This document shows, piece by piece, positions 2,584-52,710 of a DNA stretch of 64,000 bases. The translations under genes were made by a program, and so were the position numbers. The notes beneath the pieces are model-generated. The model saw only the letters and a program-made list of their open reading frames with translations. It was not told where the DNA came from and ran no database searches. This DNA is from Rickettsiales bacterium (GTDB taxonomy: Bacteria; Pseudomonadota; Alphaproteobacteria; Rickettsiales; UBA1997): positions 11,956 to 75,955 of the forward strand of contig CBFIDI010000001.1 of the NCBI GenBank assembly GCA_965661355.1. Direction: 5' to 3'. Each line of letters begins with the position of its first letter. Positions within the stretch are counted from its first letter, which is position 1.

Positions 2584-3384
2584 TTATTTTCTTTTTTTTG
2601 CAAGTTCTATGTCTAGAATTTCTTTTGCTAGCTTCATATAAGCCTTTGCACCGCGACATTTGGGGTCGTAAATTACACCCGGAATTCCGTGTGAAGGAGC
2701 CTCTGAAAGCCTGACATTTCTGGGTACTGAGTTTTTAAAAACCTTGTCGCCCAAATAATTTCTGACATCGATTTCGACTTGCTCGGTTAGTTTATTGCGC
2801 TTGTCATGCATGGTTAGAATTATTCCACTCATTTTTAGATTTTTATTCAAATTGTTTTTGACCAAGTCTAAAGTTGTGAGTAAATGGCTTAAGCCCTCAA
2901 GGGCAAAAAATTCGCATTGCATCGGAATTAATATTGAGTCAGAGGCCGTTAAAGCGTTGATTGTTAAAAGACCAAGTGACGGTGGGCAGTCTATTAAAAC
3001 GCAATCATAGTCATAAATTACTTCTTGTAATATTTTTTTTAAGCAAAATTCACGATTTTGAAAAGATGCAATTTCAATCTCGCAAGCCGAAAGATCTACG
3101 GTTGAGGTTACTAAGTGTAAATTAGGTAGTTTATGAGGAATTATTACTTCTGTTATTGCCAATTCGCCAATAATTGCATCGTAAATAGTTTTTTGCCTTT
3201 GTGACTGAAAAACACCAAAAGCGGTGCTTGCATTGCCTTGCGGGTCGAAGTCTATTACTAGGGTTTTTTTCTTGGCTGCGGCAAAAGAAGTTGCTAAATT
3301 TACTACTGTGGTTGTTTTGCCAACCCCTCCTTTCTGATTAACAACTGAAAATATTTTTGCCTTTTCTTTATTTCTTGCTCTCAT
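2584..3384 (-). CDS. parA: Chromosome partitioning ATPase ParA/Soj
   Basis: Deviant Walker A motif NQKGGVGKTTT, followed by LVIDFDPQGNAS. Length is 266 aa. Confidence 0.9.
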   Translation of the reverse strand: MRARNKEKAKIFSVVNQKGGVGKTTTVVNLATSFAAAKKKTLVIDFDPQGNASTAFGVFQSQRQKTIYDAIIGELAITEVIIPHKLPNLHLVTSTVDLSACEIEIASFQNREFCLKKILQEVIYDYDCVLIDCPPSLGLLTINALTASDSILIPMQCEFFALEGLSHLLTTLDLVKNNLNKNLKMSGIILTMHDKRNKLTEQVEIDVRNYLGDKVFKNSVPRNVRLSEAPSHGIPGVIYDPKCRGAKAYMKLAKEILDIELAKKRK

Positions 3385-10268: not shown

Positions 10269-10796
10269 GCGCATTTTTTTGCACATTTTTTACCAAGCTA
10301 ATATTTAATAAATTTTTGCTGGTGGCAATTCTTTTAAAAAGACGCAAAATGACATCAAAAAAAATTGACCCTGAAATTAAAATAAATGTTTTTTTAAAGG
10401 TTAAAATCTTCAATTCTTTTAACTGCTACGAGTAGCAACTTTTTAAAGATGCTTTAAAATAAAGGCTTTAAAAAATAAAAATATTAAATTTTAAGAAAAT
10501 AAGCATTTTTAGCCTTAAAATCTACTGCTTTATTTTCATGAAAAAATCTAATTAATATTCTTGCTTTGTCAAAATTAAAACCGGGCTAGAATAATTTAAA
10601 AGTTTTAAAAAATAAGTTTTTTCTTGAATATTGCCAGCTTGAACATTGTTAAATATTTACCGCACATCAAACCAAGTTCTTGACTTTAAATACTAATATT
10701 TAGCTCTGAGTTAGCGCTAAAAAATGGAGACTCGTGTAATTGTTTGTGTCATTTTTATTTTTGCGTTAATTTTTCTAAAGAAGCTTGCTGTATTTT

Positions 10797-10847
10797 TAAA
10801 AGCTTTTTACGCAAAATTCTTCGTGACTTTTGCGTAAAAAGCTTTTA
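10797..10847. repeat. Perfect 20-bp inverted repeat (51-nt hairpin) upstream of gatB
   Basis: TAAAAGCTTTTTACGCAAAA (10797-10816), an 11-nt loop, then TTTTGCGTAAAAAGCTTTTA (10828-10847). Confidence 0.8.
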
Positions 10848-10924
10848 AAATAATTCTTTTCAAGACTAAGAAGCGGTTAATTAATCGCCCTTTTTAAGGT
10901 CAAAAACTTTAAATAATTAACAAA

Positions 10925-26365: not shown

Positions 26366-26529
26366 ATACCAAGTCCCATCTTTAAATATTAATTTAGGGC
26401 TAAATAATTTAATTAATAAATTTATTAACAAAAACTTATCCGTCGCAACGCTAAGTTAGGTTTTTGGTGATGGATTTAGTGATTAAATTACGGGCGGATA
26501 AATTGGTGCTTGAAGATGGGATTTGGTAT
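26366..26529. repeat. Palindromic MITE/RPE-like element, copy 1
   Basis: Terminal inverted repeats ATACCAAGTCCCATCTT (26366-26382) and AAGATGGGATTTGGTAT (26513-26529) match at 16 of 17 positions. An inner inverted repeat TTATCCG/CGGATAA is present. The element is homologous along its length to 48172..48343. Confidence 0.7.
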
Positions 26530-27186
26530 AATATAAATAATTAAGTTTTTAAGATAAATCTAGCACTCTTTTTGTTTAATGATAAATATTGATCTATAGC
26601 ACTAAATTTCACTTTTAAAAATATATATTTTGTATTTTTGACGAAAATTCGTTACAAAATATAGTATTTTTACCCAGCGCCGTCGCTTTTTTCATAATTT
26701 CAAGATCAAGGTTCATCGCTATAAATCACCAGAGATCTTTATAAAATTGAATAAGAAGATTAACAATCTATATTTTTACTATTTGTTATATTATTTACAT
26801 CATTTTAACTTTATGAATGATTATTAAAGATTTTAAATTTTATCAAGATAAATTAGTAAAAGTGACATAAAAGAGCAAGCTTGTGTTTTATATATCAAAT
26901 TTGTCGCAAAATTATGTATTAAATCTTATATCATTCTTCATCTAATAAAGCCCAAATAAACATTTTATCTTTTTAATAAAGATCTAGACTTATATCGCGA
27001 TGTAATTTTGTTTTTTAATAATTTTTTGCTAAAAATATTCTGCGCTTATGTCATTTTGAAGAGAAAATAATATCGAGGTTATCATTTCAAGTTATGGCAC
27101 CAGTCCCGAGCACGAAAGGGCTAGAATTTTAAAAATTTTGAACTAGAGTAATATTAATATTAAAAATGTAATGAAAATTATTATTT

Positions 27187-30117: not shown

Positions 30118-30625
30118 GAAATATAAATTAACCCAGCTTTTAAAGGGCCCGTTTTTAAATGTTGATTTAAACTAAGTAATTTGACTGATAAATTGATTAG
30201 CAGAAATAAATAGGTTAAAATTTATGCTAAAAAATTAGCAATTAAATCTAGTATTTTTATTTATATTAGCCAGTTCTTGCCCTTAAAATATCTTTGAACT
30301 TCACTTCTTAACCTTTACTTATAAAAAACCTTATTGCGCTTTTTATTCATGGCAGTATTTTTAAAGTTAATTTGCCTAAAAATTACTTTTACAAGCAAAA
30401 TTTGTTTAAATATATTTATTGCTAAAGATGCATAATTGAATAATAAAGAGTAGAAATTTTGCAAATTATAGATAAAAGATGGGTGCGATTATCAAATTGT
30501 TTTTTACAAAAAACGCAAAAATTTCTTAATAATTACAAAAATCAAGAAAGCGCCTAATATTTTAAGGATAAGTTTTTTTATAAGCGTAAAAAATAATCTT
30601 CAAATAACAAATAAAATTACAAAAA

Positions 30626-32965: not shown

Positions 32966-33120
32966 CTTGTGGGGCAAGACTTAGGGTTTACGGCGCACGA
33001 GCGCCGCCCCACTCTTGTGGGGCAAGACTTAGGGTTTACGGCGCACGAGCGCCGCCCCACTCTTGTGGGGCAAGACTTAGGGTTTACGGCGCACGAGCGC
33101 CGCCCCACTCTTGTGGGGCC
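32966..33120. repeat. Perfect 48-bp tandem repeat x3.2, GC-rich and hairpin-forming
   Basis: The unit CTTGTGGGGCAAGACTTAGGGTTTACGGCGCACGAGCGCCGCCCCACT occurs at 32966-33013, 33014-33061 and 33062-33109, plus 11 nt of a fourth unit. 31 of 48 bases are G/C. Nested stems are GTGGGGC/GCCCCAC and CGGCGC/GCGCCG. Confidence 0.95.
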
Positions 33121-34579: not shown

Positions 34580-34749
34580 CAAATTATAATTAAAATTTAC
34601 AATTAATGATTTAGAGCTAAAAAATTTCACCAAGAAATTAATCAGGTGATGTCAGAAATTTTTAAAGATAGCTTTATTGATTGAGTTTTAACGAATAAAT
34701 AAATCAATCATAAAATTTAAATGGCGCAATATAAATATAATAAAAATAA

Positions 34750-47963: not shown

Positions 47964-47995
47964 TTTTTTGCGCAAATATTCTTAACTTTTAAAAA

Positions 47996-48027
47996 CCCGC
48001 CCAGAGTTATTTTGGGCGGGTTTTTTT
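47996..48027 (+). terminator. Rho-independent terminator after rpoC
   Basis: CCCGCCCA (47996-48003) pairs with TGGGCGGG (48013-48020). The stem is followed by a T7 run. Confidence 0.8.
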
Positions 48028-48171: not shown

Positions 48172-48343
48172 ATGCCAAGCCTTGTCTTTAACAACTAATT
48201 TAGGGCTTAATAATTTAATTAATGAATTTATCATCATAAGCCGAGTTAAGGCCAAGACTCATGGTTAATTTCTTTGGCGATGAAGAGATTTAGCAATTAA
48301 GCCATAGCAGATAAGTTAGCGCTTAAAAGTAAAGCTTGATATA
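48172..48343. repeat. Palindromic MITE/RPE-like element, copy 2 (more degenerate)
   Basis: It shares with copy 1 the core AATTTAGGGCT[A/T]AATAATTTAATTAAT[A/G]AATTTAT (33 of 35 identical). The right half TTTGG[T/C]GATG..GATTTAG..ATTAA..GATAA.TT.G.GCTT.AA also aligns. The terminal inverted repeats are decayed. Confidence 0.6.
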
Positions 48344-50354: not shown

Positions 50355-51689
50355 ATGCCTATTGAAGTTTTAATGCCAGCCTTGTCACCAACCATGACAG
50401 AAGGCAATTTAGCAAGTTGGATCAAAAAAGAAGGAGACAAAGTCGAAGCCGGCGAAGTAATTGCTGAAATTGAAACAGACAAAGCCACAATGGAAGTTGA
50501 AGCCGTTGATGAAGGGGTTTTGGGTAAAATTTTAGTTAAAGAAGGAACTGAAAATGTTAAGGTAAATAGTGCCATTGCTCTGATTCTAGAAGATGGAGAA
50601 GACAAAAAAGAACTTGAAAATTATAAACCAGAAGAAGGTGGCGCTGAAAAATCTGAAAAAAAACCAGAAGACAGCCAGAGCGACAATAAGAATGAAGAAA
50701 AAGACGATAAGCAAAACGATAAAGAAGATAATAAAAAACAAGAAATCAATAAAATAGAAGAAAAAAAGCAACCAAAATCAACCGCCACAAGCGACAGTTT
50801 TTTGGTTGATGATTTACTTGGCGTTAAAGCAAGCCCGCTAGCAAAAAGAATTGCCAAGGAAAATAACCTAACTTTGGCGCAAATTGAAGGCAGCGGACCA
50901 AGAGGAAGAATTATTAAGGACGATGTTTTAGATTTTGCAAAAAGTGGTGGACCGAAAGGTGGCGCGGTTAGAAGAAATTCAAAGGAAGTTACCGAAGTTA
51001 AAAATAGTAATATTAGAAAAGTCATTGCTAAAAGATTGCTAGAATCTAAGCAGAAAGTTCCACATTTTTATTTATCGGCCGATTTAAATATCGATAAATT
51101 GCTAGATATGAGAAAATCTATTAATGAAGAGGCCAAAATATTAGAAAATGGTAAACCAGAATATAAAATTTCAGTTAACGATTTAGTAATTAAAGCCAGC
51201 GCCTTGGCACTGAAAAATGTTCCGCAGGCGAATAGCTCTTGGTCAGATGATGCGGTTCTGCTTTATAACAATGTTGACATTTCAGTTGCCGTAGCAATTG
51301 AAGATGGACTGATTACGCCAATTGTTAAGAACGCTGATCAAAAGGATATTATTGCAATTTCTGGCGAAGTAAAGTCTTTGGCTAAGAAGGCAAAAGAAGG
51401 AAAGCTTCAACCAGAAGAATTTCAGGGTGGAAGCTTTAGTATTTCTAACCTTGGAATGTATGCGGTAAATAATTTTCAGGCAATTGTTAACCCGCCTCAA
51501 AGCTGTATTTTAGCAGTTGGAGCTGGAATTAAAAAACCGATAGTTGATGAAGATAACAATATTAAATCGGCCACAATAATGAATGTTACATTGTCTTCAG
51601 ACCACAGATCTGTTGATGGGGCGGTTGGCGCAGAGTTTTTGGCGGCGCTTAAAAAATATATCGAAAAGCCAGTTTTGATGATTATTTAG
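50355..51689 (+). CDS. pdhC: Pyruvate dehydrogenase E2 (dihydrolipoamide acetyltransferase)
   Basis: Lipoyl domain [26 protein letters not shown], the E3-binding [11 protein letters not shown], and the catalytic [10 protein letters not shown]. Length is 444 aa. Confidence 0.92.
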
Positions 51690-51755
51690 CAACTAAATTC
51701 AAAGATTATAAAAGCCAGTTTTGATGATTATTTAGCAACTAAATTCAAAGATTAT
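51664..51755. repeat. Perfect 46-bp tandem duplication spanning the pdhC stop codon
   Basis: AAAAGCCAGTTTTGATGATTATTTAGCAACTAAATTCAAAGATTAT occurs at 51664-51709 and again at 51710-51755. Confidence 0.95.
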
Positions 51756-52710
51756 AATTTTGGATTTGACAATTTAAAACTAATATTGTTTAATTTTTAA
51801 ATATCAGCCGCTTAGATCGTTTTATTTAGCTAACGAGAAATTCAAATCTGAGTATATTTTTTTGCTCTGGATTCTATCTTTTGCTAACTAACAAAATGTA
51901 AACTAAGCCACATTCTTAGTCTAAGGCAACAAATGAAATTTGGAAAAATGTATAAAAAGTTCAAACTAATATTGGTTTTAATAATAACTTCTATATTAGT
52001 TTACAAAATATTCTTTAGTGCAAATAGCAAAGAAAACTTTAGCTGGATTTTTGAAGGGCAAGAAGAAAAACAGGTTTTGCCCGAATTATCAAATGAAGAA
52101 ATAGAAAAAAATAGCAAAATAGACTAAGTGTTTTTATGCTCAAAATTGTGTTTTAAGCCTGTTTTCTAGGCCACTTTCTTTGTTTTGGCGACAAAAACTT
52201 TACTAATGAATTCTAGTATATTTAAGTAAAACTATACATTTCACAACTTAGTTCATAAATTTTTGATGTAATTTATAAGGTGAAATTTCTTGAATTTATC
52301 TGAACTATGTCTAATTGCCAATTTTAAATGACAATTTATACCAAGCTCTATCTTTAAATGCTAAATATATCAAAAAAATATCCGCCTGTTATGCCTTGCT
52401 TTTGATAATAAATTTATTCATCAAATCTTGCCCCCCCTAGATTAGTACCTAAAAATATAATTTATTATATTTTATTTAATTAGCTTCATAATAAATGTTC
52501 ATTTTTCATGATAATTCTTTTGATAAAATTTCCTAACCCTTAAAAATTAATTATAAAATTAAAATGGAGCAACTTAATATTTCGTTGCTAGAAAATTGGC
52601 GTAATTTAGTGCAAAATTAATATTACCGCCCTGTTTTGTTGACTTTTTGACTTAAAAATACTAATATAAATCAATATATTTTTATATAAACACCAAAAAG
52701 CTAAACCCTA

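Follow-up and report, generated by a model that had tools for sequence, protein, structure and literature searches.

The window analyzed here, a stretch of 64,000 nucleotides, most likely harbors an intact member (copy 1) of a MITE-like family of non-autonomous mobile palindromes that comprise about 160 bp, and we put the probability of this reading at roughly three in four. In sequence the family is new, but the kind of selfish DNA to which it belongs is well known and it does not represent a new kind of system; such family properties are shown by MITEs, Correia elements and RPEs (PMC10969869, PMC3184786, PMC1166351, PMC2575882). An earlier note on this DNA had already assigned the locus to a family of short palindromic non-coding MITE/RPE-like repeats, an assignment that is now supported by additional copies in the window and by the palindromes of related genomes.

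The host can be described fairly as a Rickettsiales-like alphaproteobacterium because VirB8 and VirB9 genes are encoded in the window and because of its relatives in rpoC, the nearest sequences being 76-77% identical and located in L003 (the MAG 'Rickettsiales bacterium HJD.7') and L002 (a MAG labelled Lentimonas). The L002 contig (JBLHVR010000017.1, 34% GC) carries the label 'Lentimonas sp.' (Verrucomicrobiota), but its rpoC is 76% identical to that of the window, and since an alphaproteobacterial rpoC matches at this level the label is doubtful, which suggests that the contig was mis-binned or mislabelled. Among the other genes of the window the leucyl-tRNA synthetase (56866-60069, 1067 aa) has an unusual architecture in that its editing domain is followed by an inserted GNAT acetyltransferase domain (PF13302, residues 388-543).

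Anatomy and folding of the intact element

Copy 1 is bounded by the inverted repeats ATACCAAGTCCCATCTT (26366-26382) and AAGATGGGATTTGGTAT (26513-26529) that are complementary at 16 of 17 positions, exactly as the earlier note had read them, and at 18 of 20 if 20 nt are considered. With up to three mismatches the left 20-mer is found at three sites in the window where 0.01 would be expected in shuffles, namely at both ends of copy 1 (the right one on the opposite strand) and at 52338-52357, where the degraded copy 4 keeps 17/20 of the terminal repeat. The palindrome of about 165 bp proposed from the letters turned out on folding to extend over the whole element. All 164 nt form a single hairpin with 68 pairs in the minimum free energy structure and 64 in the centroid, comprising 53 Watson-Crick and 11 G.U pairs. 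Folding both as RNA and as DNA had been recommended, and RNA of the + strand reaches -65.6 kcal/mol compared with -28.7 ± 3.3 in dinucleotide shuffles (z -11.3, with 0/200 as good) while the DNA fold amounts to -28.9 kcal/mol (z -6.1).

Positions of the family members and of related elements are compiled in Table 1.

Table 1. Location of the palindromic elements and of their parts in the window and, where a contig is named, in related genomes
Feature	Position	Strand	Basis
Copy 1, intact palindromic element, 164 bp, whole-length hairpin	26366..26529	+	fold
Copy 1, left terminal inverted repeat ATACCAAGTCCCATCTTTAA	26366..26385	+	20-mer search; termini common to elements A and B of L097
Copy 1, right terminal inverted repeat, reverse complement 18/20 identical to the left one	26510..26529	-	
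Copy 1, outward extended -10-like motif TGGTATAAT, from terminus TGGTAT and flanking AAT	26524..26532	+	consensus match
Copy 2, decayed, same orientation as copy 1	48172..48343	+	blastn E 1e-17, nhmmer
Copy 3, degraded, between leuC and sppA, boundaries approximate	15590..15751	+	24.9 bits, E 5e-7
Copy 4, degraded, internal deletion, opposite orientation	52338..52468	-	15.9 bits, E 3e-4
Copy 5, degraded with deletions, upstream of the long ORF from 62309	62061..62190	+	13.9 bits, E 1e-3
Copy 5, TGGTATAAT at right end	62185-62193		
Copy 6, most diverged candidate, weakest member	30138..30289	+	11.2 bits, E 8.5e-3; repeat family D1
Element A, palindrome	L097 (metagenome contig Ga0214921_10001677) 2609-2769		inverted-repeat scan
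Element B, palindrome	L097 (Ga0214921_10001677) 2771-2931		inverted-repeat scan
B-type relic, decayed, full-length, downstream of rpoC terminator	L002 (JBLHVR010000017.1) 14230-14400		nhmmer E 8e-5, local alignment z 22.6

In a sliding 170-nt fold scan copy 1 is the second strongest + strand outlier of the window. The strongest predicted fold, on both strands, belongs to a perfect 48-nt tandem repeat (32966-33119, 3.2 copies, GC-rich to about 33165) with 68% GC compared with 34% in the genome. This repeat occupies the intergenic space that separates two divergently oriented genes, one for an ABC ATPase and one for a histidine kinase. Between gyrA and gatB a 26-bp inverted repeat (10794-10850, 96% complementary, 5-nt loop) probably represents a bidirectional terminator-like hairpin.

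The absence of coding capacity claimed for the element is confirmed, as stop codons close 6/6 frames of copy 1 and no ORF of at least 30 aa lies inside. The heptamers TTATCCG (26437-26443) and CGGATAA (26495-26501), described as a nested inner pair, are indeed present but do not form such a pair: they lie off the main axis, are not paired with one another in the + strand fold and are not conserved in copy 2. A DnaA-box-like reading of the two heptamers was dropped for being off-axis and not kept in copy 2. With its 164 bp, terminal inverted repeats and lack of a transposase ORF copy 1 falls within the size class of MITEs (about 50-500 bp), and it forms the stable palindromic hairpin typical of RPE-type elements (~100-150 bp), being slightly longer than their published range.

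Family members within the window

The second, diverged copy in the same orientation that the earlier note had reported is well supported by a collinear alignment with copy 1 (blastn E 1e-17; global z 12.5 versus interior shuffles), and the shared core ascribed to both copies is recovered as 36 nt with 2 mismatches. Copy 2 is located ~150 nt downstream of the rpoC terminator (47991-48025), its hairpin being degraded (-37 kcal/mol, z -1.5). An HMM trained on copies 1 and 2 only, i.e. the profile search that had been proposed, was run on the window and detected four degraded copies (copies 3-6) that had not been listed before. They score 11-25 bits compared with a maximum of 11.3 bits over 60 block-wise dinucleotide-shuffled windows; the scores of copies 3 and 5 are reached by 0/60 of these windows and that of copy 6 by 1/60. 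A natural control of ~180 kb of relatives' DNA with 29-36% GC yields a best HMM score of 6.2 bits. Copy 6 has complementary termini of its own, TTTTAAAGGGC and GCCCTTAAAA.

All six copies are intergenic, and the recommended check for insertions into ORFs thus revealed none in the coding sequence of the window. Five copies share one orientation and one is inverted, a split that is not significant. With six copies in 64 kb, two of them clear and four degraded, the family shows the multiple dispersed copies expected of a MITE, one of them (copy 1) being directly seen as intact. A possible fragment of the left half of the element at 34583-34650 (family D1) matches copy 1 with 62% identity along 68 nt but is not significant in the unbiased two-copy HMM (E 0.54). 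A perfect 39-nt tandem duplication (63739-63816) is found within the long ORF that begins at 62309 and continues past the window end.

Could palindrome and similarity have arisen by chance in AT-rich low-complexity intergenic DNA? The window has 34% GC and weak blastn matches (E > 0.01) occur at many AT-rich spots, as this explanation would have it. Against it stand the fold of copy 1 that no shuffle equals, three terminal 20-mer matches where practically none are expected, the match between copies 1 and 2 and the weak copies that outscore all or nearly all 60 shuffled windows as well as the natural AT-rich controls. Because of these shuffle controls chance can be regarded as already refuted and retains a vanishingly small probability. 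The earlier note had named a lack of further copies genome-wide, together with similarity at the level of the AT-rich background, as the outcome that would speak against its reading; copies 1 and 2 are found far above this background, and further copies are present in the window.

Decay of the copies and strand asymmetry

For a test of pairing and covariation the structure of copy 1 was projected onto the six-copy alignment. In this alignment 72% of the cells pair in register, compared with 32-49% after a shift of the 3' partners by 1-3 columns, and since in-register pairing exceeds that of the slid registers the six copies descend from a palindromic sequence. Neither the covariation (117/500 shuffles reach the observed value) nor the count of compensatory changes (246/500) rises above shuffles in the six-copy alignment. 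Copies 2-4 fold little better than shuffled sequence (z -1.4 to -2.4), the values for copies 5 and 6 being raw energies only. A pairing register kept without covariation is more in line with a palindromic master whose copies decay than with a gene for a structured RNA.

These data bear directly on the proposal that the loci form a family of small structured RNA genes or cis-regulatory RNA hairpins selected for their fold and are not mobile DNA at all. The very stable and G.U-rich + strand hairpin of copy 1 would be in line with such a function, as would three double changes of compensatory appearance between the 17-bp termini of copies 1 and 2, but the latter are equally expected if both ends have to match one transposase. 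Covariation does not exceed that of shuffles, the copies other than copy 1 fold little better than shuffled sequence where compared, and the copies occur in unrelated contexts and in both orientations. Moreover, a consensus scan at copy 1 reveals neither a convincing upstream promoter nor a downstream terminator, and no Rfam match was obtained at E up to 10. We therefore consider an RNA family very unlikely. At gathering thresholds Rfam 15 detects only two tRNAs in the whole window, and a permissive search of the loci of copies 1 and 2 returns only spurious miRNA and snoRNA models far below threshold. An assignment as 6S RNA or another structured sRNA was rejected for lack of Rfam signal and covariation, and a genomic island at tRNA-Met was rejected as well, since the tRNA has the element on its 5' side and lacks a repeat of its end.

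The decay of a mobile palindrome, as preferred here, does not account for everything. The two arms of copy 1 differ at 11 positions in a manner that is G.U-compatible on the + strand and at 2 positions as A.C (G.U-compatible on the - strand), a bias with p 0.02. It is because of this 11:2 bias that the RNA of the - strand folds at only -37.5 kcal/mol (z -6.2) compared with -65.6 kcal/mol for the + strand. Simple decay at the DNA level does not predict this asymmetry, which therefore counts against the best explanation. In the other five copies 29 G.U differences stand beside 30 A.C differences, i.e. no asymmetry is seen, and that of copy 1 is probably due to chance or to its private history.

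Alternatively, the asymmetry could reflect propagation via a strand-specific single-stranded hairpin, either of ssDNA as in IS200/IS605 and REP/RAYT systems or of RNA, instead of a cut-and-paste transposase that acts on double-stranded repeats; the + hairpin of copy 1 would then be the relevant form. Besides the energy gap and the bias of the arms this proposal could draw on a palindrome that covers the whole element beyond its ends and on the common orientation of 5/6 copies. Yet the asymmetry is limited to copy 1, the orientation split is not significant, elements A and B of the related contig L097 fold equally well on both strands and the window contains neither a tnpA nor a RAYT gene. REPs comprise ~35 bp and the ends of IS200/IS605 are subterminal hairpins and not whole-length palindromes. 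Both the size of the former and the end type of the latter thus differ from the element described here, and propagation through a single strand appears unlikely.

Evidence for copies outside the window

Exact-protein look-ups with ten ORFs of the window yielded only short Logan contigs from one run (ERR15116646), four of the look-ups being empty. The ends of these contigs are informative since a de Bruijn graph with k=31 breaks contigs on entering an exact repeat. One contig (L083) stops at 51693, which is exactly 30 nt inside a perfect tandem duplication of 46 nt (51664-51757), and as this break falls in a known repeat it validates the k=31 rule. A second contig (L082) stops at 26395, again exactly 30 nt inside an element if counted from 26366, the first base of copy 1. 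No other 31-mer of the window matches 26366-26396, so none within the window accounts for the break, and near-identical copies outside the window are therefore probable. At least one further copy with an identical terminus is probably present elsewhere in the genome, and in the simplest reading 26366 is the true left boundary of copy 1. A third contig (L084) ends at 62153 inside copy 5. Other contig ends fall within coding sequence (41972, 58841), hence random breaks occur, and a strain SNP at 26396 could equally give the end point of L082.

The gene for pyruvate dehydrogenase E2 (50355-51689) has its stop codon within the tandem duplication at 51664-51757, whose 46-nt unit contains ATTTAGCAACTAAATT that resembles the right-half motif of the element. 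Downstream of copy 1 follow ~650 nt of AT-rich DNA (26530-27186) without an ORF of at least 40 aa, up to a gene for a Mrr-type restriction endonuclease. As 26396-27046 is missing from the flanking Logan contigs, this segment may hold other repeats or pseudogene remnants.

A 25-nt exact pattern of the core that matches copies 1 and 2 occurs in none of 185,579 GTDB species genomes and nowhere in the JGI metagenomes, two collections from which the host itself is absent. Likewise, a scan of viral contigs with the terminal 31-mer gave no matches, and blastn in distant mode found no match in plasmids (PLSDB, 72,556 records) or phages.

Related palindromes in related genomes

The family HMM finds no match in the fetched genome loci, including those of L002 and L003, nor in 11 metagenome loci of VirB9 relatives, and the nearest relatives are too distant for an alignment of intergenic DNA. 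An inverted-repeat scan, in turn, detected two palindromes (elements A and B, Table 1) in the metagenome contig L097, whose VirB9 is 77% identical to that of the window. Both comprise 161 nt, are near-perfect palindromes and intergenic, lie one base apart and start as a pair 3 nt past a stop codon. They fold at -81 to -88 kcal/mol, alike on both strands and with Watson-Crick symmetry, and share the apex CTGTAT..CCTGATACAG. As far as could be checked, A and B are unannotated and undescribed.

The termini ATACCA...TGGTAT are common to copy 1, A and B, as is a length of 161-164 nt. In a scan of the window and of ~1.7 Mb of fetched loci, ATACC/GGTAT ends combined with a terminal repeat identity of at least 18/20 were found in these three elements only. 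The interiors of A and B resemble that of copy 1 weakly, though above the level of shuffles, with z 4.4 for B and z 3.0 for A, values that are inflated by palindromy, and nhmmer does not connect the interiors of the A/B family with those of the copy 1 family. Judged from these comparisons the two probably represent one element type that has split into diverged families with common ends, the part an enzyme would recognize. A decayed relic of the B type follows the rpoC terminator in L002. Since copy 2 also follows rpoC, orthology of the two was considered but rejected because no similarity is detectable (z 0.3). The related elements sit at non-orthologous sites in related genomes.

Proposed origin, target site and mobilizing enzyme

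According to the preferred reading as a mobile palindrome, an enzyme encoded elsewhere in the genome would have spread the copies into intergenic DNA by acting in trans. It would probably be a transposase that recognizes the conserved termini. After insertion most copies would decay by point mutations and small deletions, so that copy 1 may be young or belong to a still homogeneous subfamily and copies 2-6 may be relics. Read-through transcription of an intact copy would give an RNA with a long hairpin, and the cognate ORF-bearing element would be expected to be bounded by ATACCAAG...CTTGGTAT. In the window no ORF shows a transposase domain, neither the window nor the fetched loci contain a transposase or IS with matching terminal repeats, and an IS-sized pair of ATACC/GGTAT ends was not found in ~1.7 Mb of fetched loci.

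Copy 1, A and B have flanks of the same form, ATA/CC...GG/TAT. A duplication of the target TA, possibly on insertion into ATAT, is therefore possible by analogy with IS630/Tc1-type and Correia elements, but because TA is itself palindromic such a duplication is inseparable from a longer inverted repeat. No longer direct repeat was found to flank any copy.

A more far-reaching version would see in these elements an undescribed superfamily of ~161-164-bp whole-length palindromes with invariant ATACCA...TGGTAT termini that is active across an uncultured Rickettsiales-like clade, is mobilized through a strand-specific hairpin and with its ends systematically seeds extended -10 promoters in a lineage otherwise poor in regulatory resources. 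The hint at a strand-specific hairpin intermediate comes from the G.U bias of the + strand hairpin of copy 1. As a whole we hold this version to be rather unlikely.

Outward -10-like motif

The motif TGGTATAAT was found precisely where the earlier note had placed it, at the right end of copy 1 (Table 1). It occurs 4 times in the window with 0.6 occurrences expected, and two of the four are at right ends of elements (copies 1 and 5). It is seen again at the junction of A and B in L097, and the terminus with the DNA after B gives TGGTATTAT. Because TGGTAT next to A/T-rich DNA recreates the box at copy 1, copy 5 and A/B, we infer that the element ends are inherently prone to form an extended -10-like box facing outward, a putative promoter of the type documented by experiment for Correia elements (PMC10969869); it would tend to arise where the TGGTAT terminus comes to lie against an A/T-rich target.

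From this motif a different origin of the family could be derived, namely that the right half is a conserved, domesticated TGnTATAAT promoter module for downstream genes and that the similarity among the copies reflects regulatory conservation. The enrichment of TGGTATAAT and its position at two right ends agree with this proposal, as do the better conservation of the right halves among degraded copies (GATTTAGCAATTAAAT...GCATTTAAAG), the 4/6 copies that face a co-directional downstream gene and the outward promoters borne by Correia elements and other MITEs (PMC10969869). However, the next gene is 650 nt away from copy 1, the genes faced by copies 4 and 6 are convergent, copies 2, 3 and 4 have a degenerate -10 box, and the functions of the downstream genes are unrelated. 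The TGGTATAAT motif was found without a -35 hexamer, and a two-hexamer promoter scan around copy 1 counts 14 sites, no more than in shuffles (9.9, sd 3.5). The DNA around copies 1 and 2 is AT-rich, and consensus scans for promoters and terminators yield little there. Furthermore, a promoter module would amount to a mobile element put to secondary use and not to another origin, and as a rival to mobility it is very improbable indeed.

Comparison with known systems

Considered as mobile DNA, the family is closely matched by bacterial MITEs such as mISOt1/2/4 and SROt2 of Orientia tsutsugamushi and the QMITEs of Coxiella (PMC2575882, PMC5896051, PMC10969869). It resembles them in a length of ~100-300 bp, in terminal inverted repeats, in the lack of an ORF, in multiple intergenic copies at various stages of decay and in an AT-rich bacterial host that may be intracellular or host-associated like theirs. 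It differs in being palindromic over the whole length and not at the ends only, in having no cognate IS in the searched DNA and no demonstrable target-site duplication, and in showing no sequence similarity in the searched GTDB, JGI, plasmid and phage collections. SROt2, a published MITE-like repeat without known IS (PMC2575882), likewise has no identified cognate IS. In all but two respects, namely a demonstrated target-site duplication and a cognate IS, the element thus corresponds to the descriptive definition of bacterial MITEs.

With RPEs it has in common the size (105-146 bp as published, PMC3184786), the palindromy, a Rickettsiales-type host and proliferation followed by deterioration. 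According to Ogata et al. 2000 (cited in PMC10969869; PMC1166351), RPE-1 to RPE-10 are sequence families of Rickettsia, ~105-150 bp palindromes that form a long hairpin and characteristically insert in frame into protein-coding genes where they encode a conserved peptide. In the window, by contrast, 6/6 copies are intergenic with stops in every frame, and the element peptides (the four longest, concatenated) have no match at E up to 10 among 5.8 billion proteins. In addition, the host is not a Rickettsia (best rpoC identity 77%) and the core has no exact match in the GTDB genomes. Since the hallmark of in-frame coding insertion fails and no sequence link to Rickettsia was found with the core pattern in the GTDB genomes or by blastn in PLSDB, the family should not be filed as an RPE.

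The Correia elements of Neisseria (PMC10969869) are alike in comprising ~100-200 bp, in inverted-repeat ends and an intergenic, often gene-upstream location, as well as in ends that abut TA and are able to form outward -10-like boxes. By analogy the predicted hairpin transcripts would be candidate RNase III substrates in both cases. Sequence and host are unrelated, and Correia elements possess 26-bp terminal repeats and a non-palindromic interior with an IHF site whereas the window family is a whole-length palindrome. Promoter activity, IHF binding and RNase III cleavage were shown experimentally for Correia elements (PMC10969869). Elements A and B of L097 have the same termini, length and whole-length palindrome as copy 1 and come from a related lineage (VirB9 77%, rpoC 76%), but they are symmetric on both strands whereas copy 1 is asymmetric.

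Significance

By itself this family opens no new biological question. Small palindromic repeats shape intergenic DNA and break short-read assemblies, and in reduced genomes they can donate promoters, RNase III sites and peptide inserts. For annotation it follows that six intergenic stretches of the window can be flagged as repeat-derived and not as candidate regulatory RNAs. As termini and length are shared by three diverged elements, ATACCA...TGGTAT offers a handle for finding the mobilizing enzyme, and the family provides a record of such elements from a lineage that only metagenomes have revealed.
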